A DNA stretch of 34,296 nt from a virus (IMGVR_UViG_2913128013_000001:1-34296), one strand, 5' to 3'. Counted from the first letter of the stretch, positions 3,355 to 27,561 are shown. Numbers and translations: made by a program. The notes: a model not told the origin generated them from the letters alone.

Positions 3355-3626
3355 GTATTCGTATTGAAATTGGCGAACGTTATGTCGTTACCAGTGACAG
3401 CTTTCAGTTTATTCTCCACGAGAAAAAGAGAGCGGAAAGCGGTAAAAACGCCGGTCAGGAATGGCTGGCGGTGGTTGGTTATTACCCGAAATTAAGCCAG
3501 CTCGTTTCCGGCCTGATGCATCACGATATTCTGACCGGAAGCGCAAAGTCTTTTGCTGATTTAAACGCGCAGGTTGAGCAACTCAGCAAGCGTTGTTCAG
3601 AGGCTTTTGGCTCATATGGCCGTTAA
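3351..3626 (+). CDS. Hypothetical early protein, 91 aa (P2 orf83 position)
   Basis: ORF overlapping the preceding stop (ATGA) and the A start. Confidence 0.5.
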   Translation: MSIRIEIGERYVVTSDSFQFILHEKKRAESGKNAGQEWLAVVGYYPKLSQLVSGLMHHDILTGSAKSFADLNAQVEQLSKRCSEAFGSYGR

Positions 3627-5922
3627 AGCCTCCGGGCGTTTTGTCCCTCCGTCAGCATTTGCCGCAGGCACCGGTAAGACGTTTACCGGTGCTTATGCAT
3701 GGAACGCGCCACGCGAGGCTGTCGGGCGCGAAAGACCTCTTACACGTGACGAGATGCGTCAGGTGCAAGGTGTTTTATCCACGATTAACCGCCTGCCTTA
3801 TTTTTTGCGCTCGCTGTTTACTTCACGCTATGACTACATCCGGCGCAATAAAAGCCCGGTGCACGGGTTTTATTTCCTCACATCCACTTTTCAGCATCGT
3901 TTATGGCCGCGCATTGAGCGCGTGAATCAGCGCCATGAAATGAACACCGACGCGTCGTTGCTGTTTCTGGCAGAGCGTGACCACTATGCGCGTCTGCCGG
4001 GGATGAATGACAAGGAGCTGAAAAAGTTTGCCGCCCGTATTTCATCGCAGCTTTTCATGATGTATGAGGAACTCTGCGATGCCTGGGTGGATGCGCATGG
4101 CGAAAAAGAATCACTGTTTACGGATGAGGCGCAGGATCATCTGTATGGTCATGTTGCTGGCGCTGCACGTGCTTTCAATATTTCCCCGCTCTACTGGAAA
4201 AAATACCGTAAAGGACAGATAACCACGAGGCAGGCATATTCTGCCATTGCCCGTCTGTTTAACGATGAGTGGTGGACTCATCAGCTTAAAGGCCAGCGTA
4301 TGCGCTGGCATGAGGCGTTACTGATTGCTGTCGGGGAGGTCAATAAAGACCGTTCTCCTTATGCCAGTAAACATGCCATTCGTGATGTGCGTGCACGCCG
4401 CCAGGCAAATCTGGAGTTTCTTAAATCGTGTGACCTTGAAAATAAGGAAACCGGCGAGCGCATTGACCTTATCAGTAAGGTGATGGGCAGTATTTCTAAT
4501 CCTGAAATTCGCCGGATGGAGCTGATGAATACCATTGCCGGTATTGAGCGTTACGCCGCTGCAGAGGGTGATGTGGGGATGTTTATCACGCTGACCGCGC
4601 CGTCAAAGTATCACCCGACACGTCAGGTCGGAAAAGGCGAAAGTAAAACCGTCCAGCTAAATCACGGCTGGAACGATGAGGCATTTAATCCAAAGGATGC
4701 GCAGCGTTATCTCTGCCGTATCTGGAGCCTGATGCGCACGGCATTCAAGGATAATGATTTACAGGTCTACGGTTTGCGAGTCGTCGAGCCACACCACGAC
4801 GGAACGCCGCACTGGCATATGATGCTTTTTTGTAATCCACGCCAGCGTAACCAGATTATCGAAATCATGCGTCGCTATGCGCTCAAAGAGGATGGCGACG
4901 AAAGAGGAGCCGCGCGAAACCGTTTTCAGGCAAAACACCTTAACCGGGGCGGTGCTGCGGGGTATATCGCTAAATACATCTCAAAAAATATCGACGGCTA
5001 TGCACTGGATGGTCAGCTCGATAACGATACCGGCAGGCCGCTGAAAGACACTGCAGCGGCTGTTACCGCATGGGCGTCAACGTGGCGTATCCCGCAATTT
5101 AAAACGGTTGGTCTGCCGACAATGGGGGCTTACCGTGAACTACGCAAATTGCCTCGTGGCGTCAGCATTGCTGATGAGTTTGACGAACGCGTCGAGGCTG
5201 CACGCGCCGCCGCAGACAGTGGTGATTTTGCGTTGTATATCAGCGCGCAGGGTGGGGCAAATGTCCCGCGCGATTGTCAGACTGTCAGGGTTGCCCGTAG
5301 CCCGTCGGATGACGTTAACGAGTATGAGGAAGAAGTCGAGAGAGTGGTCGGCATTTACGCGCCGCATCTCGGCGCGCGTCATATTCATATCACCAGAACC
5401 ACGGACTGGCGCATTGTTCCGAAAGTTCCGGTCGTTGAGCCTTTGACTTTAAAAAGCGGCATCGCCGCGCCTCGGAGTCCTGTCAATAACTGTGGAAAGC
5501 TCACCGGTGGTGATACTTCATTACCGGCTCCCACGCCTTCTGAGCACGCCGCAGCAGTGCTTAATCTGGTTGATGACGGTGTTATCGAATGGAATGACCC
5601 GGAGGTCGTGAGGGCGCTCAGGGGCGCATTAAAACACGGGCTGAGAACACCAAATCGTCAGCAGAGAAACGGAAGCCCGTTAAAACAGTATGAAATGGCA
5701 CCATCGGCCAGACTGACCCGGTCGGAACGAGTGCAATTTACCCGTATCCGCGTTGACCTCGCTCAGAACGGTATCAGGCCGCAGCGATGGGAGCTTGAGG
5801 CGCTGGCGCGTGGAGCAACCGTAAATTATGACGGGAAAAAATTCACGTATCCGGTCGCTGATGAGTGGCTGGGATTCTCAACAGTAATGGAGTGGACATT
5901 ATGGCAAAAATTCACGAGGTAA
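3616..5922 (+). CDS. A: Replication initiation protein A (rolling-circle endonuclease), 768 aa
   Basis: Start chosen at MAVKASGRF (ATG 3616). Large protein with an HUH-type signature (EPHHDGTPHWHMMLF) and the AAGYIAKYISKN motif typical of rolling-circle initiators; size and position match P2 gpA. Confidence 0.85.
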   Translation: MAVKASGRFVPPSAFAAGTGKTFTGAYAWNAPREAVGRERPLTRDEMRQVQGVLSTINRLPYFLRSLFTSRYDYIRRNKSPVHGFYFLTSTFQHRLWPRIERVNQRHEMNTDASLLFLAERDHYARLPGMNDKELKKFAARISSQLFMMYEELCDAWVDAHGEKESLFTDEAQDHLYGHVAGAARAFNISPLYWKKYRKGQITTRQAYSAIARLFNDEWWTHQLKGQRMRWHEALLIAVGEVNKDRSPYASKHAIRDVRARRQANLEFLKSCDLENKETGERIDLISKVMGSISNPEIRRMELMNTIAGIERYAAAEGDVGMFITLTAPSKYHPTRQVGKGESKTVQLNHGWNDEAFNPKDAQRYLCRIWSLMRTAFKDNDLQVYGLRVVEPHHDGTPHWHMMLFCNPRQRNQIIEIMRRYALKEDGDERGAARNRFQAKHLNRGGAAGYIAKYISKNIDGYALDGQLDNDTGRPLKDTAAAVTAWASTWRIPQFKTVGLPTMGAYRELRKLPRGVSIADEFDERVEAARAAADSGDFALYISAQGGANVPRDCQTVRVARSPSDDVNEYEEEVERVVGIYAPHLGARHIHITRTTDWRIVPKVPVVEPLTLKSGIAAPRSPVNNCGKLTGGDTSLPAPTPSEHAAAVLNLVDDGVIEWNDPEVVRALRGALKHGLRTPNRQQRNGSPLKQYEMAPSARLTRSERVQFTRIRVDLAQNGIRPQRWELEALARGATVNYDGKKFTYPVADEWLGFSTVMEWTLWQKFTR

Positions 5923-6353
5923 AGCTGCACGCAAAATATTTCGACCTTGTGCTGGAAGGAAAGAAACGCGCAGAGTTTCGGAAAAATGACCGTAATTATG
6001 AGCGCGGGGACACGTTGATTTTGCATGAATGGGTGCAGGGTGTGTATACGGGGCGAAAGGTTGAAGCCCGGATAACAGATGTTACTGACCTGTCAGACTG
6101 GCTGGAAGATTATGTCTTGCTAAGTATTGAGCTGCTTAATACAGGTGCATATGAGATTGTGAACTGGAAAGAACTTAGTGAGCGTGGCCTGGTATTCAGA
6201 ATTAATCATGAAATTATGCATCAGCTCGGCCTTGCTGTTATGTATGAACCAGAGACGGGGATGTCTGGCGGGGCAATGGTTGCCACGGATGGAGCATGGA
6301 ACTATTCAGATGAACAGATTGAGCGTGCACAGCAAAACGGGTGGCTTGGATAA
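5901..6353 (+). CDS. ASCH/DUF3850-like (PUA-fold) protein, 150 aa
   Basis: ATG at 5901 with GGAG 8 nt upstream. N-terminus MAKIHEVKLHAKYFDLVLEGKKRAEFRKNDRNYERGDTLILHEW resembles the ASCH/DUF3850 family, from recollection. Confidence 0.55.
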   Translation: MAKIHEVKLHAKYFDLVLEGKKRAEFRKNDRNYERGDTLILHEWVQGVYTGRKVEARITDVTDLSDWLEDYVLLSIELLNTGAYEIVNWKELSERGLVFRINHEIMHQLGLAVMYEPETGMSGGAMVATDGAWNYSDEQIERAQQNGWLG

Positions 6354-6559
6354 TGCACAGAATACCAGGTGAGATACCGCACCATAAAACTAAAAATATC
6401 AAGCTGATGGCTATTGTTCAGCGTTTGCAGCAGATTATGGTCAACGAAAATCTGACGCCCGATGAGCTGGTCGGGTGTGCCGAAATAGTCCGGGATAATT
6501 ACGGGCGGCTTAACGATATCGGTCAGTCCAGAGTTATGCCACCACCACGCAGACGATAG
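6353..6559 (+). CDS. Small hypothetical protein, 68 aa
   Basis: ORF starting at an ATG overlapping the previous stop (TAATG). No recognisable motif. Confidence 0.3.
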   Translation: MHRIPGEIPHHKTKNIKLMAIVQRLQQIMVNENLTPDELVGCAEIVRDNYGRLNDIGQSRVMPPPRRR

Positions 6560-6788
6560 AGAACGCCGCCAGTCGTGAAACTTGTTTTCAGGGCTGGCGG
6601 GGTTGAACAACGAGCGAAGCGAGGCGTTAGTTGACAGTCATATTTTTACTGCGTTGGTGCTGGTTTTTGACGGTTGAAAGGAGTTAGCTCGGAGAGCTAA
6701 AGCTAACAACTTACAAATATTCAAAAGTAAGCTTCCTGTTGTTAACATAAGGTCGATTTTTTATGTGGATGATGCAAAAAGGATAGCT

Positions 6789-7520
6789 ATGGATACTGTA
6801 ATCGCTTTTCTATCACTCGCTTTTTTCGTTGCTTTTTTCATCGGGTTAATCAAACCATCACTGGTGCGGATGCCGAACCGTAAACGTGCAAGTGCGGTTT
6901 ATCTCGGAGGAGGTTTTGTATTGAGCATAATTGGTTCAATACTCTATCCAACAGAAAAAAGCCAGCCAGTTGCTAAAACTGATACATCAACCGTTGCAGA
7001 ACACCAAGTCCAAAAAACATTCGAATATGGTGGAAAAACACTCAAGGAATATCGGAACGAGCCAAAGAAAACTCGACACGATATTGTGAATAGTTACATT
7101 GATTTTAAGAAAGTGCCAGTCACCGCATCAGATGCATTTTATGCCTGCATGAGTGAATATACTTTTACCAAAGATGATGAGTTGAAACTCGGTGATGTTC
7201 TTGGGTGGTGCTTTAATGATTATGAAAATGACCCGAATTCACTAAACAATAAAATCAATCTTGATACATTTCAGAGTAATTTTAGTGGTTGGGATGGTTC
7301 TTATCGTCCATTGGAAAAACTAATTAAAGATAATATGAACGATGATTCATCTTATAAACATGTGTCAACGGTATATCATTTGGTTTTGAATAAAGACCCG
7401 CACGCCATTGTGAAAACCACATTTCGTGGCACTAATGCTTATGGAGGAGTAGTTAAACAGACTATTGCTGCGCGTGTCGACATCCGAACGGGCGAAGTCG
7501 TTTCAGTATTAGATAACTAA
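6789..7520 (+). CDS. Membrane-anchored hypothetical protein, 243 aa (cargo island A, gene 1)
   Basis: ATG at 6789 with AAGGA 6 nt upstream. Two predicted N-terminal transmembrane helices (VIAFLSLAFFVAFFIGLI and VYLGGGFVLSIIGSILYP) followed by a soluble domain of roughly 180 aa. Strongly AT-rich compared with flanking phage genes. Confidence 0.55.
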   Translation: MDTVIAFLSLAFFVAFFIGLIKPSLVRMPNRKRASAVYLGGGFVLSIIGSILYPTEKSQPVAKTDTSTVAEHQVQKTFEYGGKTLKEYRNEPKKTRHDIVNSYIDFKKVPVTASDAFYACMSEYTFTKDDELKLGDVLGWCFNDYENDPNSLNNKINLDTFQSNFSGWDGSYRPLEKLIKDNMNDDSSYKHVSTVYHLVLNKDPHAIVKTTFRGTNAYGGVVKQTIAARVDIRTGEVVSVLDN

Positions 7521-7523
7521 TCG

Positions 7524-7585
7524 TTGATGCCGTATTGACACTTGTTATACTAGTGGTGGAACGAGACTGCAATAGTCTGTTCCAC
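7524..7585 (+). promoter_or_regulatory. Sigma70-like promoter (TTGATG-16nt-TATACT) followed immediately by an imperfect 12-bp-arm inverted repeat (candidate operator or 5' stem-loop)
   Basis: TTGATG at 7524-7529 and TATACT at 7546-7551. Dyad GTGGAAC-g-AGACT (7556-7568) pairs with AGTCT-G-TTCCAC (7574-7585) with one bulge and a 5-nt loop. Confidence 0.35.
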
Positions 7586-7632
7586 TACAGGAGTAATTAC
7601 CTTGACTGTAAGTTGCTTTTATTGAGGGAACT

Positions 7633-8922
7633 ATGAAGTTTAAGACTGAATTGAGTCGAAAATTGCATGACTCGGTAGTGTTTGATTTGAAAAAAGACCT
7701 GGTAAAATTAGAGGGAAACCTAAAAAATACAGATTTGTTGTTGTCGTTTCAGTTCAAAATAATAAGGAATATAATTAGAAGTGAAAGGATGATCAAAGGA
7801 TTAAAGTCTTTCTTAGGGGAACTAAAGGCAACAAAAAGAAAAGGTGGTTTAAAAAAAGAACAATCTAAACTTATTAAGGAAAATATTAAGAGTGTTGAGC
7901 AGGTTATTGATGATGTGAAATTTAAAATATATATCTTCAAAATGTTTGGTGATAGTGTTGCTTTTTTGTATTTGGATAAGTTTGATATTAAGCATTTTTT
8001 TTATAATGTTGTGGATTACAGTCCCAAGGAGTCAGCGGGCTATATGGGAGGGAAGGATGGCTTAAAAGAAGAATGGGGATTGGTGAAGAAGGCCTGCAAG
8101 GCTGGTGTTCCTACGTTACTCAATGATATTACAATGAGTATGAGGCATGGTGATGTTTGTTTACTTGGTGAAGGTGCACCAGTACTGGTGGAGGTGAAAT
8201 CAAGTCAAAATAAAAATGATCGTGTTGAACGTCAAAAAAATAACCTTAATAGACTAGCTGAATTTTTAGCAGAAGATAAAGCTGAAGATTTTAGAGGGAT
8301 GCCATTAGTGTTAAGGAAAGAACTGTGTTTTTCAGAAGTTACATATAAAAAAGAATTTAATGAGCATCTGAATGTATGCAGGAAAAAAGGAATTTCATGG
8401 GTAAGGCTAGAAGATGGATTTTATGTGGTATCTAATCGTGGCTGTGATCTGGAAATAGCATTATCACAGTTGGATCTTAGAGGGAGGAAAATTGCACCTA
8501 TATTTTTGAATGAATATAAAAATAATCAATTGTGGGTTCCTTTAACTCCATTTGTTAATCTTATAAATGATGCGCGTGATTTGTGTGACTTTATAAATGG
8601 GGAGTTAACTATTCTCTGTGTTCTTGATTTGGATTGTTTTAAACAAATAGCTTTGAATGAAGGGTTTGAGCTTGTTTTTGTCGATGGTGAAGACTATTCG
8701 ATGATATTTAAAGAATTTGGTAGCTCATTGATTTGGGGTGTGTCATGGCAAATGATGCTTCGCACTCCTTTAGAAATGGTGTCAATGTCTTGGTTAATTA
8801 AAGATTCAATTGATAGATTTAAGCGTTTACAAAAGCAACATGCTGAGATGCAGCCTGCCACTGATGTTAATACATCCGAAACCTCCTTGTTTGAAAAATA
8901 TAGGCCTCTTTTTACAAAGTAG
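7633..8922 (+). CDS. Hypothetical protein with PD-(D/E)xK-like nuclease motif, 429 aa (cargo island A, gene 2)
   Basis: ATG at 7633 with GAGGGAA RBS. Very AT-rich and Lys-rich. Central motif E147...D165...D174(HGDVCLLG)...E187-V-K189(PVLVEVKSS) fits the restriction-endonuclease-like fold pattern. No Walker A motif seen. Confidence 0.6.
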   Translation: MKFKTELSRKLHDSVVFDLKKDLVKLEGNLKNTDLLLSFQFKIIRNIIRSERMIKGLKSFLGELKATKRKGGLKKEQSKLIKENIKSVEQVIDDVKFKIYIFKMFGDSVAFLYLDKFDIKHFFYNVVDYSPKESAGYMGGKDGLKEEWGLVKKACKAGVPTLLNDITMSMRHGDVCLLGEGAPVLVEVKSSQNKNDRVERQKNNLNRLAEFLAEDKAEDFRGMPLVLRKELCFSEVTYKKEFNEHLNVCRKKGISWVRLEDGFYVVSNRGCDLEIALSQLDLRGRKIAPIFLNEYKNNQLWVPLTPFVNLINDARDLCDFINGELTILCVLDLDCFKQIALNEGFELVFVDGEDYSMIFKEFGSSLIWGVSWQMMLRTPLEMVSMSWLIKDSIDRFKRLQKQHAEMQPATDVNTSETSLFEKYRPLFTK

Positions 8923-9011
8923 TCAGATGCTGTAGGTGTATATGCTATTGCATTAATTTGCATGCAAAACAAGTAGAGGTAAAACTCTTACAGGCTGCTT
9001 GGGGGATAGCT

Positions 9012-9039
9012 TTTGAATGCTAATGCATTTGCATTCAAA
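9012..9039. repeat. Perfect 9-bp inverted repeat with 10-nt spacer (TTTGAATGC-N10-GCATTCAAA) just left of cos
   Basis: Read directly from the sequence; the spacer contains the palindrome AATGCATT. A separate 12-bp perfect palindrome TTTGCATGCAAA lies at 8957-8968. Confidence 0.6.
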
Positions 9040-9058
9040 TTGCCCCACGAAGCGGGCG

Positions 9059-9077
9059 GGCGAGGCGGGGAAAGCAC
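9059..9077. other. cos: Candidate cos cohesive-end sequence (GGCGAGGCGGGGAAAGCAC)
   Basis: The 19-mer matches my recollection of the P2/186 cohesive end. It sits in the non-coding, GC-rich interval next to the portal gene, where cos lies in P2. Confidence 0.5.
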
Positions 9078-9219
9078 TGCGCGCTGGCGGTGGTGCTGAT
9101 TTTATTTTTTCAGCGTCTGAGCGCGTCGTGATGGCGTTTAGAGTGTGCGCCGGGGCGTTGGTGTGTCTGCGGGCTGTTTTGTGCGGTGGTGAGCGTGTGA
9201 GGGCGTGATGGCGGGGTGT

Positions 9220-9241
9220 AAAAAAGCCGCCCGCAGGCGGC
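9220..9241 (-). terminator. Rho-independent terminator downstream of portal gene Q
   Basis: On the minus strand: GCCGCC-tgcg-GGCGGC hairpin followed by TTTTTT, 5 nt after the Q stop codon. Confidence 0.6.
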
Positions 9242-9246
9242 GATGT

Positions 9247-10281
9247 TCAGCCGTTGTCAGTGTCCAGTGAGTAGTTTTTAAAGCGGATGACCTCCTGACC
9301 GAGCCAGCCGTTTATTTCCCGAATCCTGTCCTGTAACGGGATAAGCTCATTGCGGACAAAGACCTTTGCCACTTTCTCAATATCACCCAGCGACCCGACG
9401 TTCTCCGGCTTGCCGCCCATCAACTGAAAGGGGATGCGGTGCGCGTCCAGCAGGTCAGCGGCGCTGGATTTTTTGATATTAAAAAAATCGTCCTTTGTCG
9501 CCACTTCACTGAGCGGGATAATTTTGATGCCGTCTGGCTTTCCCTGTGGTGCATAGAGAAACAGATTATTAAAGTTATTGCGTCCTTTCGACTTGGCCAT
9601 GTTTTCGCGAAGTGAGTCAATGTAATCGCGATCCTGCAATGCGTCGGTGATATACATGATATATCCGGCATGTGCACCGTTTTCGTAATACTTGCGGCGG
9701 AACAGCGTGGCCGACTCATTCAGCCAGGCAGAGTTAAGGGCGCTCAGATATTCCGGCAGGCCGTACAGCTCCTGATTAATATCCGGCTCCAGCAGGTGAA
9801 ACACGGAGCCGGGCGTGAAAGGTGTCGGCTCGTTGAAGGATGGCACCCACCAGTAAACATCCTCCTCCACGCCACGGCGGGTATATTTTGCCGGTGAGGT
9901 TTCCAGTCTGATGACCTTACCGGTGGTGCTGTAACGCTTTTCCAGAAACGCATTACCGAACACCAGAAAATCCAGCACAAAGCGGCTGAAATCCTGCTGG
10001 GAAAGCCACGGATGCGGGATAAACGTTGAAGCCAGAATATTACGTTTGACGTAAATCGGTGAGCTGTGATGCACGGCAGCACGCAGGCTTTTTGCCAGAC
10101 CGGTAAAGCTGACCGGTGGCTCATACCATCTGCCGTTACTGATGCACTCGACATAATCCAGAATGTCACGGCGGTCGAGTACCGGCACCGGCTCGCCAAA
10201 GGTGAATGCCTCCATTTTCGGGGCGCTGGCGGTCATTGTTTTTGCCGCAGGTTGCGGTGTTTTCCCTTTTTTCTTGCTCAT
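9247..10281 (-). CDS. Q: Portal protein, 344 aa
   Basis: 344 aa, the same size as P2 gpQ; adjacent to cos and translationally coupled to the terminase gene. Confidence 0.9.
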   Translation of the reverse strand: MSKKKGKTPQPAAKTMTASAPKMEAFTFGEPVPVLDRRDILDYVECISNGRWYEPPVSFTGLAKSLRAAVHHSSPIYVKRNILASTFIPHPWLSQQDFSRFVLDFLVFGNAFLEKRYSTTGKVIRLETSPAKYTRRGVEEDVYWWVPSFNEPTPFTPGSVFHLLEPDINQELYGLPEYLSALNSAWLNESATLFRRKYYENGAHAGYIMYITDALQDRDYIDSLRENMAKSKGRNNFNNLFLYAPQGKPDGIKIIPLSEVATKDDFFNIKKSSAADLLDAHRIPFQLMGGKPENVGSLGDIEKVAKVFVRNELIPLQDRIREINGWLGQEVIRFKNYSLDTDNG

Positions 10282-24939: not shown

Positions 24940-25243
24940 GAAATTTGTAATCTTTATGATGAAAATCTTAAACAGTATGGCGCCTCCCATCCTGTTTATT
25001 CAAAGGATGTAAGGTTTACACATTCCTGAAAACTTCAGACTCAACCATGATGTATGAGCTGTAGTATGAAGTCTCTTTCCATCCAGTTAAGTAAATGTCT
25101 GCTCCTCGCTTAAAGCGGACTTTTAGCTTAGTTAGCTAGTCAGCTCAGTGCTAAAAGCTGTATAGTCTGTATTGATGAACTAAGGAGCAGATCAGGAGTA
25201 TTTTGGAGAGCGTTTTAGTTACTGTGAAATATAATAGATTGAA

Positions 25244-25272
25244 ACCATGAGGCTCTATTAGAACCTCATGGT
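25244..25272 (-). terminator. Candidate terminator hairpin downstream of the 675-aa gene
   Basis: 9-bp stem ACCATGAGG / CCTCATGGT with an 11-nt loop, 13 nt past the stop codon. The downstream tract on the minus strand is only moderately U-rich. Confidence 0.35.
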
Positions 25273-25284
25273 AAACTTAAATAC

Positions 25285-27312
25285 TTACTGAAGTAAAACA
25301 TTCATTCTTTCTCTCCGATAATCCACAAGTTGTTCAATATCGCTCTCAAGACTTTCTATCCCAAAAGCAACTGAATCACTAATTTGTAGAGTGTGTTTTT
25401 TGACAACAGTGCTTTCAAAAAACTCATTTAATTGAATTGGTTTTTCAAATTGTTTAATTAAGTCAGAGGCTTGAAGCGTATTATTTTCCCATAATTTATG
25501 CATGGGGTGATTTGTGGACGTTAACGTACCATATTCATTTCTTACTTTAATTCCACTTATATGACTATTGTGCAGTATTTTGCTAAGTGCCGAATAGTCA
25601 GTTACATACACCCCATAGTATTTCCCAGGAAGTGAGAATGGAAGGTTGTTGACAATTACTGGTATAATTTCAAAGTTATTAATATCAAGGCCAAATTTAT
25701 CGCTGAATACATCCTGGTGTTTTTTTAGACCATCAGCAAGTCTGATAACTTGATTAGCTGCGTCAATTAAAAACATTTTCTTCTTGAATGCTTTAGTTAC
25801 AGAACCACCGGATAAATTTGTATTTTTACATTCCAGAACAAATACTTTATCATCTAATACAATTATTGCATCATACTCATATTCTTCATTCTCTCTTTTG
25901 AACTTAAAATGCTGATGATTTATTTTTAAATCAGAGAGCATTTCGTGGATCTCTTTTTCAAAACCAAATCCTTTTTGGGAAAGATCTACTTTTAGTGATG
26001 AGAACTTTGATAATATAATGTTACTTATTCCAGGGCTGAAATAGCCAATACTACAGAATAGATAATCTCCAGATTTCATTTTTAAAAGAGGAGAATCATA
26101 AAGGTCACGGGATTCATTGTTAAAGCTAGCCAAATCAATAAATAGCTTTGATTTATTACCAGGTATACCAACTAATTGTAAATATGTGCTCAATTCCGAT
26201 GAAGTAAATACTTCTCTTTTTTCCGATATTTTGGATAGTCTTTCTAGCGCGGAGTAACACCTAACCCATTCACGCAGTGTTAAACCAAAAATTAACATGC
26301 TCTCATCAGTTAAACATAGAGTCTCGAGTAGTGCTACATATGCCGGAAACTCTGATGTCGTTATTGAATAACCGTTATTAATATCTGCAAGCCTAGTTAA
26401 ATTTTCATCTACTGTTTTATGGACATTATGTTTATACAACGCCTCCATGAAGTTCTGTGATAACTTTGAATACAGCCTTTCATTTGACATGTAATCCAAT
26501 CTTATGAATTGTTCTTTAGTTAGATTAAATTCATAGAATGTCTCAAGACCAGCGTTCTCTAATCCATTAGGTAAGTTTGTAGAGGTATATTCATTTAATT
26601 CATAATCAAATAGCAGGCATGTTTCTACAGAACGCTCTAAAGAAGACCACAGTATCGAATTGTAAAATATTACCCCAGCATCATTAATATCATCTTCCTT
26701 AACATCTACCATGTCAGGAATTACAATGAAACCCCCACTATTTAACTTATAATTAAAGCCAATCATCTTCAAACTAAGAGATAGATAATCGACTGTTTTG
26801 GATATTACAACATCAGGAGAGTATGATTCACCTTGTTTGTTTTTTAAGTATGCGGTAGAAATATCAAACAATTTTGGTTCCCGGTTAATGCTCTCTAGAT
26901 ATTTCTTTGTTTCGTTTTTTAAAAAATCTATCTCACCTTGCGCCCGTCTTATTATAGCCCAACACTGTATTTCCGGCGTTTTTTTGCTGATGGGTAAGCT
27001 TGATAAGTTAGATTTAATAACATCAAATATTTTTTCCGCACAAATACATAGTTTTTTAAGGTTATCTATTTTTTGTATTAAATCAGGGACACTTGTAGCT
27101 CCTTTTAAGTCGGTGAGGAATGAATTTCTTTTTTCCCGTAAATTCACATTGTGGGGTTGTATATTGATGTTTTTTTTAAACATCGCAAAAAGGAAACGAA
27201 GTATTTTATCATTATAATTCTGTTTTAACTGTATCACTATGTTCTTTGACTTGAATTTGCAATAGTCGATTTCTAACGTTTTATAGATATTTTCTGCATG
27301 TGATTGTGACAT
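25285..27312 (-). CDS. Large hypothetical protein with C-terminal PD-(D/E)xK nuclease-like motif, 675 aa (cargo island B)
   Basis: ATG at 27310-27312 with AAGG RBS. Very AT-rich, opposite strand to the phage late genes. Motif GFGFEKEIHE (E452/E454)...YDAIIVLDDKVFVLECK (D481, D487/D488, E494, K496). No Walker A motif. Confidence 0.6.
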   Translation of the reverse strand: MSQSHAENIYKTLEIDYCKFKSKNIVIQLKQNYNDKILRFLFAMFKKNINIQPHNVNLREKRNSFLTDLKGATSVPDLIQKIDNLKKLCICAEKIFDVIKSNLSSLPISKKTPEIQCWAIIRRAQGEIDFLKNETKKYLESINREPKLFDISTAYLKNKQGESYSPDVVISKTVDYLSLSLKMIGFNYKLNSGGFIVIPDMVDVKEDDINDAGVIFYNSILWSSLERSVETCLLFDYELNEYTSTNLPNGLENAGLETFYEFNLTKEQFIRLDYMSNERLYSKLSQNFMEALYKHNVHKTVDENLTRLADINNGYSITTSEFPAYVALLETLCLTDESMLIFGLTLREWVRCYSALERLSKISEKREVFTSSELSTYLQLVGIPGNKSKLFIDLASFNNESRDLYDSPLLKMKSGDYLFCSIGYFSPGISNIILSKFSSLKVDLSQKGFGFEKEIHEMLSDLKINHQHFKFKRENEEYEYDAIIVLDDKVFVLECKNTNLSGGSVTKAFKKKMFLIDAANQVIRLADGLKKHQDVFSDKFGLDINNFEIIPVIVNNLPFSLPGKYYGVYVTDYSALSKILHNSHISGIKVRNEYGTLTSTNHPMHKLWENNTLQASDLIKQFEKPIQLNEFFESTVVKKHTLQISDSVAFGIESLESDIEQLVDYRRERMNVLLQ

Positions 27313-27561
27313 AAAGAAACCTTACAGTGGTGGTAATATTTGACATGATGTCCATTGAGGTAGCATGCAGTTTATCCAATATCCTGAATACTCGCAAATT
27401 TAAAACAATATTAATGGAGAGTATAAATATCCTGCTTAACCGGACCATTCACTTTGAGAGATCTTCCGGCAAACCAATGTCCGCAGTTCGCTCAAAGTAG
27501 ACTGTCAGATTTGACAGAGCTTTGGTTACTTAATTTGTCAGTTGGAAACTGAGAGAGTACA

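Follow-up and report, generated by a model that had tools for sequence, protein, structure and literature searches.

Between two genes of a low-GC island in a viral sequence of 34,296 nucleotides (the window, from whose first letter all coordinates are counted) lies a 112-bp spacer in which a promoter-like site is directly followed by an inverted repeat, and the question that this locus raises is what the repeat is for: a DNA operator, a structured mRNA leader, or something that belongs to the gene upstream. The spacer (7521-7632) runs from the TAA stop codon of the upstream ORF (7518-7520) to the ATG of the downstream ORF at 7633. A first-pass annotation of the sequence had described here a good sigma70-like promoter (TTGATG-16-TATACT) and a 12-bp-arm imperfect repeat positioned about where transcription would start, and had proposed that the nuclease-like downstream gene is thereby placed under independent and tight control. 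The length of the spacer, the two hexamers, and the repeat arms could all be read directly from the sequence as described; the coordinates of these and other features are collected in Table 1.

Table 1. Features of the prophage window, with positions in the 34,296-nt sequence.
Feature	Coordinates	Strand	Remarks
Phage_GPA replication endonuclease (gene A)	3574-5922		
Phage 186 orf97 homologue (the membrane-protein gene of the first-pass annotation)	6789-7520	+	243 aa by the RefSeq start; mechanical ORF from GTG 6765
20-nt segment in orf97 (codons VVKQTIA)	7449-7468	+	Complementary to hairpin loop and right arm
Swappable cassette (spacer, 429-aa gene, and about 20 nt)	7521 to about 8943	+	Between the orf97 stop and the cos-proximal backbone
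-35-like hexamer TTGATG	7524-7529	+	Read from sequence; promoter scan; spacer shuffles
Extended -10-like element TGtTATACT	7543-7551	+	16 nt 3' of the -35 hexamer
Imperfect inverted repeat / RNA stem-loop	7553-7588	+	16 pairs, G7563 bulged
Shine-Dalgarno-like GAGGG	7624-7628	+	4 nt 5' of ATG 7633; read from sequence
429-aa protein gene, PD-(D/E)xK-like motif	7633-8922	+	N-terminal long helical hairpin, C-terminal alpha/beta domain
Portal gene	9247-10281	-	3' of the low-GC insert; terminase beyond

The window is a P2-like E. coli prophage, and its low-GC island is the gpA-gpQ cos-proximal defence hotspot defined by Rousset et al. 2022 (PMC9122126) and also treated by Moura de Sousa et al. 2026 (PMC13586616). 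The island lies between gpA and the portal gene gpQ, next to cos, and its cargo differs among otherwise similar prophages. Following the replication endonuclease gene are a DUF3850/ASCH gene and a 68-aa ORF, then the low-GC insert, and then the P2 cos 19-mer GGCGAGGCGGGGAAAGCAC at 9059-9077. The locus resembles other P2 hotspot cargo in its position, in being a low-GC insert, in the rapid swapping of modules with breaks at gene borders, and in that genes related to its cargo gene also occur in the psu-int hotspot of P4. It differs in that no defence model of PADLOC, Pfam, or NCBIfam is matched by either gene, the 429-aa gene being a candidate defence gene; hairpins at module junctions are not described in the two hotspot papers (PMC9122126, PMC13586616).

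To delimit the modules, the region 6700-9000 was compared by megablast with 5426 complete E. coli genomes. The orf97 homologue occurs in 84 of these, and the spacer with the 429-aa gene in only 17; E. coli GF130 (NZ_CP172140), 19KM1831 (NZ_CP151026), and 09-02E (NZ_AP022650) are examples of strains with the arrangement of the window. Elsewhere the alignment of orf97 genomes ends at window position 7520 (query position 821), the last base of the stop codon, while on the right, homology with a prophage carrying an alternative cassette restarts at about 8944. Four other arrangements were found 3' of orf97: a terminator, a 198-aa gene, and a FRG-domain gene in L001 and L003, and those of L011 (P2_4A7b), L012 (P2_2H4), and L010 (phage 186). 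With at least four other downstream arrangements on record, the two genes do not make up one island-A system as had been supposed; the alignments indicate that orf97 and the 429-aa gene are independent modules, with the 112-bp spacer as their recombination seam. No convincing direct or inverted repeats flank the cassette as the mark of a transposable unit. A REP-like dispersed palindrome was also considered for the spacer and rejected, as the spacer is single-copy per genome and, in the 17 of 5426 E. coli genomes that hold it, always sits at this junction. Two independent IS insertions disrupt orf97 5' of an intact spacer and 429-aa gene: in a food-metagenome contig (L025, 10240-10295), an IS1 end abuts orf97 at about window position 7336, and the other insertion, in strain LR-45 (NZ_AP027532), is an IS3-family element.

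The upstream module is 74.6% identical in DNA to phage 186 orf97 over the whole gene (blastn) and matches phrog_3403 (E = 5e-146). In the record of phage 186, orf97 carries the annotation 'expression from plasmid blocks 186 infection', and its transcription is driven by the LexA-controlled SOS promoter p95 and ends at the terminator t95b. The 3' region of this SOS operon (tum-orf97-t95b) is the closest known layout, in that orf97 is there also followed by a strong stem-loop and then by t95b. The window differs in having no tum, LexA box, or p95, in that its hairpin is unrelated in sequence and has no U-tract, and in that a cargo gene lies 3' instead of cos. On the plus strand of the 230 bp 5' of orf97 (6560-6788), we detected neither a sigma-70-like site at the scan threshold nor a LexA box; no LexA box lies near orf97 or the spacer, and the only CTGT-N8-ACAG in the window, at 27502, is at chance level.

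The product of the downstream module has E147, D174, E187-x-K189, and Q201 invariant in 22 sequences, with these residues placed on a helix-strand-strand-strand-helix core in a confident structural model (pLDDT 88). PD-(D/E)xK nucleases carry their catalytic D...(D/E)xK on an alpha-beta-beta-beta-alpha-beta core. Searches of Pfam, PADLOC, and NCBIfam, and of the PDB by Foldseek, returned nothing for the 429-aa protein, a PDB profile search gave coiled-coil noise only, and no literature was found on the RefSeq protein accessions or the PHROG identifier. From motif and predicted fold, a nuclease-like function is a reasonable prediction; the earlier assignment keeps its PD-(D/E)xK-like motif and lacks a match in Pfam, PADLOC, NCBIfam, or the PDB.

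The family of the 429-aa protein (24 clusters, phrog_14906) stands on its own in several settings. The Citrobacter homologue L004 (70% identical) lies directly after gpA with no orf97, and L005 (68% identical) lies in a P2 remnant. The homologues at about 50% identity (L006-L009, L013, and L014) belong to P4-like satellites, where they lie 3' of psu and, where the contig covers that side, 5' of an integrase gene or its remnant. On the psu side, the surroundings of L015 are the same, but its contig ends inside the gene; L016 is one more locus of the family. A search of genome contigs for related loci gave no relatives. Given that the gene is stand-alone cargo in both the P2 gpA-gpQ and the P4 psu-int hotspots, the family is a good candidate for a single-gene anti-phage system, as a prediction from sequence. 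According to Moura de Sousa et al. 2026 (PMC13586616), defence genes hardly ever pass between P2 and P4; as the P2 and P4 versions here are about 50% identical, any sharing would be ancient rather than recent.

Within the spacer, the TATACT hexamer (7546-7551) is preceded by a TG at 7543-7544, making an extended -10 (TGnTATACT), and together with the -35-like hexamer at a 16-nt spacing it agrees with the sigma-70 consensus at 9 of 12 positions. It is the sole promoter candidate in the spacer. The scan returned this one site where shuffled spacers gave 0.2 +/- 0.5, and 12 sites against 8.0 +/- 2.4 expected over the 3.6 kb of 6000-9600, so that the motif only barely exceeds chance level; of the promoter called good in the first-pass annotation, the motif and its extended -10 stand, and the excess over chance is marginal. 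A perfect TTGACA at 7535-7540, read from the sequence, has no -10 partner, and no minus-strand promoter was found in the spacer at the scan threshold. The cassette probably owns a weak-to-moderate sigma-70 promoter in the 32 nt between the orf97 stop and the hairpin. That the cassette should have a promoter of its own is plausible, given that it travels alone and that no plus-strand promoter-like site precedes orf97 in the 230 bp scanned; hotspot systems are generally active from their native promoters (PMC9122126). The leader near the Shine-Dalgarno-like sequence is similar to that of the homologue L005. A leader peptide was rejected: a 33-codon mechanical ORF (TTG 7535 to TGA 7636) lacks a Shine-Dalgarno sequence, has its TTG start upstream of the predicted transcription start, and is probably meaningless. 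The hairpin lies within this ORF, whose TGA forms an ATGA overlap with the start codon of the 429-aa gene.

The inverted repeat itself is real and pairs further than had been claimed. The arms first noted, GTGGAACgAGACT (7556-7568) and AGTCTGTTCCAC (7574-7585), form 12 pairs with G7563 bulged and are separated by the 5 nt GCAAT; the full palindrome, with 16 bp, starts 2 nt past the -10 element. In the minimum free energy (MFE) fold, the loop is the 3-nt CAA at 7570-7572, closed by a G7569.U7573 wobble. Folded as plus-strand RNA, the hairpin reaches -22.3 kcal/mol against -9.1 +/- 2.3 for dinucleotide shuffles (z = -5.8; none of 200 as good), while as DNA it reaches -11.6 kcal/mol (z = -5.2). 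The minus-strand RNA folds to only -15.8 kcal/mol, because both wobbles of the stem are G.U on the plus strand and would be C/A on the minus strand. Among about 34,000 40-nt windows on both strands of the whole sequence, the hairpin ranks 13th, and it is the only top-ranked one within the low-GC island (31-38% GC).

Several known classes of element were considered for this structure and set aside. The hairpin shares with intrinsic terminators a stable stem-loop soon past a stop codon, and its counterpart in L001 is a canonical one, yet the sequence directly 3' of it (ACAGGAGTAATTACC) contains no U-tract and so it is not a canonical intrinsic terminator; a scan of 7521-7632 gave no terminator-like sites. 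Integron attC core sites read RYYYAAC (R'') and GTTRRRY (R'). The arms GTGGAAC / GTTCCAC do not fit these patterns, and the locus is a P2-like prophage with no integron context. A type III toxin-antitoxin system of the ToxIN kind was likewise rejected, as such a system has tandem direct RNA repeats between promoter and toxin gene, and the only repeat of this sort in the spacer is an 11-nt match in two copies. An Rfam scan of 6300-9300 (E <= 5) gave no match in the spacer, and the one 19-mer match found in 596 Gb of genome contigs, in a Thorarchaeota MAG, was disregarded, with about four such matches expected by chance.

Variation at the locus could be followed in 10 copies, all at least 98% identical (the window, L002, L017, L018, L020-L023, L024, and L025). 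In 220 nt there are four variable sites, three of them inside the hairpin, and the core stem is never broken. The fourth (7539 C/T) falls in the promoter spacer and is the only promoter variant, the hexamers being unchanged in all copies. In the hairpin, A7561G turns an A-U into a G-U pair, keeping the pairing in RNA and breaking the DNA symmetry in the GTGGAAC half-site; C7570T lies in the loop; and T7586A turns an outer G.U into a G/A mismatch, the majority allele A7586 weakening the outer stem to -18 kcal/mol. One wobble, one loop change, and one outer mismatch are too little variation for covariation to be assessed.

A broader comparison is offered by the other arrangements of orf97, in each of which we took the best hairpin in the first 90 nt past the stop codon and set it against 200 shuffles of the same 90 nt. 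Alongside the hairpin of the window (-22.3 kcal/mol, 0/200 as good), those of phage 186 (-26.3 kcal/mol, 0/200), L011 (-21.1 kcal/mol, 0/200), L001 (-15.4 kcal/mol, 1/200), and L012 (-15.2 kcal/mol, 2/200) are all significant, so that all five arrangements have a significant hairpin past the orf97 stop, and the five are unrelated in sequence. That of L001 is a canonical terminator (AAGCCATAATATGGCTTTTTT). The recurrence is suggestive, with the reservation that hairpins past stop codons are common anyway, and it suggests selection for a structured boundary at the 3' end of the orf97 exclusion gene, whatever cargo comes next. As such, it is a small point on how the modules of a hotspot are insulated from each other.

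The reading that we favour, with roughly even confidence, is that the dyad acts as a stem-loop in plus-strand RNA, at the seam of two independently acquired modules (the exclusion gene orf97 and a cassette whose one gene encodes a PD-(D/E)xK-like protein), and that it is tied primarily to the 3' end of orf97. In orf97 transcripts, such an intercistronic or 3'-end hairpin would block 3'-to-5' exonucleases, or would pause or partly stop transcription, as would the hairpins found at this place in the other arrangements. A point against this reading is that the promoter-like site lies upstream of the hairpin, unlike in a simple terminator-then-promoter layout. The same structure could also take on a second role. 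A rule of thumb that places the start site 6-9 nt past the -10 hexamer predicts a start at G7558-A7560, and it is by this rule only that the dyad lies, as first noted, about where transcription would begin. Were the promoter to fire there, the inner 11 pairs would be flush with the 5' end of the 429-aa mRNA and might act as a 5'-terminal stabiliser of the ompA type. The feature as a whole is an ordinary one, a promoter-like site and an mRNA hairpin at a recombination seam.

That stem-loops at the very 5' end stabilise E. coli mRNAs is established (Emory, Bouvet and Belasco 1992, a reference listed in the review PMC3997798). In the ompA type, the hairpin begins within about 0-4 nt of the 5' end, the defining geometry for protection against RppH and RNase E. 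With the predicted start at 7558-7560, the hairpin of the window would begin 0-2 nt from the 5' end, as in the ompA and papA stem-loops; it differs from these in that its stem extends 5 bp 5' of the predicted start, and in that homologous genes are without such a leader. An alternative that we hold to be unlikely is that the hairpin is purely a 5'-leader element of the nuclease-like gene, with transcription starting at about 7558, and stabilises or regulates that mRNA without any relation to orf97. The -10 element ends at 7551, which would have the inner stem G7558-C7583 begin at the first transcribed base. Folding of the predicted 5' UTR, a check proposed in the first-pass annotation, shows that the truncated hairpin (7558-7590) still forms, at -12.7 kcal/mol (z = -4.3), and the spacer occurs only with the 429-aa gene. 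Against a role confined to the leader, the outermost five pairs (7553-7557) would serve no purpose, being upstream of the start; moreover, orf97 sequence is copied in the right arm, and hairpins recur past orf97 irrespective of the next gene.

The leaders of the homologous genes speak against it as well. Those of L004, L005, L006, L013, and L015, where orf97 is lacking, are without the dyad and unstructured (z between -0.6 and +0.5), from which it follows that the 429-aa family needs no dyad for its control. Promoter-like sites are present in L004 (TTGATA-17-TATGGT) and L006 (TTGCGA-17-TATTAT, a sequence common to L013 and L015), and the leader of L005 has none at the same scan threshold. In the P4-type leader of L006, from Pluralibacter, the sequence TTGATTATTATCAA (3969-3982) lies just 3' of the -10 element and is degenerate in L013 and L015; it fits the FNR-box pattern TTGAT-N4-ATCAA. 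For the cassette of the window, independent regulation as first proposed keeps a plausible promoter of its own, a separately swapped cassette, and homologues that stand alone; tight toxin control, the other half of that proposal, found no support.

The sole odd element of the locus is that half of the hairpin is an inverted copy of 20 nt of orf97 coding sequence. At 18 of 20 positions, the hairpin loop and right arm (7569-7588) agree with the reverse complement of 7449-7468. Among 300 flank shuffles, not one reached 17 or more matching positions, and a second match did not arise in any of 100 shuffles of the whole window. The copy shares synonymous bases that are private to the orf97 allele of the window (GTA, ACT), and read in frame on the minus strand, it gives VVEQTIA. 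The left arm, GTGGTGGAACGAGACT, resembles the same orf97 segment read directly (L001 allele, GTGGTGAAACAGAC). Beyond the 20 nt, no orf97-like similarity was found with five orf97 alleles in both orientations, and no analogous long-range complementarity was found in the other orf97 arrangements. When 7430-7650 is folded as a whole, the MFE structure (-67.2 kcal/mol, z = -3.9) replaces the local hairpin by long-range pairing with 7449-7468. The inverted copy could have been left at the junction as the scar of an inverted micro-duplication, or it could provide a functional alternative pairing.

The first of these, taken to its end, would make the whole feature a non-functional scar: an inverted micro-duplication or template switch of orf97 that arose by illegitimate joining, next to a promoter match owed to chance, with the 429-aa gene expressed by read-through. 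We regard this as improbable. The 20-nt orf97 match, taken by itself, could be a recombination scar without function. The right arm with the loop copies orf97, including the allele-private bases, the left arm resembles the same segment, and remnants of intense recombination are reported in the intergenic DNA of these hotspots (PMC13586616). The placement of three of the four polymorphisms in the hairpin is as expected under relaxed constraint, and the promoter motif is near chance level. Such an origin is, however, compatible with present function; all the variants observed spare the structure, the wobbles all suit the plus-strand RNA, and four unrelated arrangements have a hairpin of analogous function past orf97.

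If the alternative pairing is functional, then the orf97 segment (7449-7468), the left arm (7553-7568), and the right arm (7569-7588) would form an RNA switch that is sensitive to the origin and the translation of the transcript, a reading to which we give very little credence. In untranslated read-through orf97 mRNA, the right arm would pair with the coding segment as a 20-bp duplex, which might be a site for RNase III and for retroregulation like that of sib; in translated mRNA, or in mRNA from the internal promoter, the local hairpin would form instead. The lambda sib element is an RNase III hairpin 3' of int, whose complete form depends on where the transcript originates. By analogy, the hairpin of the window likewise lies just 3' of a phage accessory gene, and the full 16-bp stem together with the 20-bp long-range duplex would be available only in read-through transcripts from upstream; compared with sib, the duplex is short. 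Were the switch real, what happens to the exclusion gene would be tied to what happens to the nuclease cassette.

An operator, on which a dimeric repressor would bind at the +1 of the internal promoter and tightly repress a toxic nuclease, has in its favour a near-perfect palindrome over the predicted start site, just 3' of the -10 element, and a nuclease-like motif in the downstream protein, yet it is most improbable: no HTH or other DNA-binding family is found among the proteins in or beside the cassette, the half-site GTGGAAC occurs three times in the window (two of these being the arms of the dyad) against 4.5 expected and is not enriched in related loci, matches to the 13-mer arm are at chance level only, bulged arms of 13 nt around a centre of 5 nt are unusual for an operator, and A7561G breaks the DNA symmetry of the core half-site while the RNA pairing is kept. 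Conservation of the dyad in homologous islands had been named as a check at the outset, and the dyad is missing 5' of the homologues at 70, 68, and about 50% identity, which takes away the case for a toxic effector under tight, operator-based control. Of the pair of possibilities first raised, operator or 5' leader stem-loop, the leader is thus compatible with the geometry, and the operator lacks both a regulator and half-sites beyond chance. Overall, the strand asymmetry of the fold, the variants, and the lack of a regulator or of repeated sites lean towards an RNA stem, although with all copies at least 98% identical this evidence is thin.

A practical consequence of the seam is that cloning the 429-aa candidate gene 'with its native promoter' must reckon with two separate hotspot modules. 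The left edge of the hotspot is marked by a conserved backbone element (window 6562-6632; L010, 2291-2360; L004, 3822-3890) that consists of AACGCCGCCAG...CTGGCGGGGTT and then GAACAACGAGC..GCGAGGCGTTAG, folds into the second strongest hairpin in the window (-25.5 kcal/mol), and may be the end of the early operon. The element lies before orf97 in the window, after orf97 in phage 186, and directly after gpA in the Citrobacter prophage; given its place before orf97 here, orf97 is itself hotspot cargo in this prophage. A second low-GC island, at 25000-27500 (32-35% GC), carries a minus-strand ORF of 675 aa (25285-27312) that PADLOC does not match and may, by its position, be the second variable locus of P2 (Z/fun).
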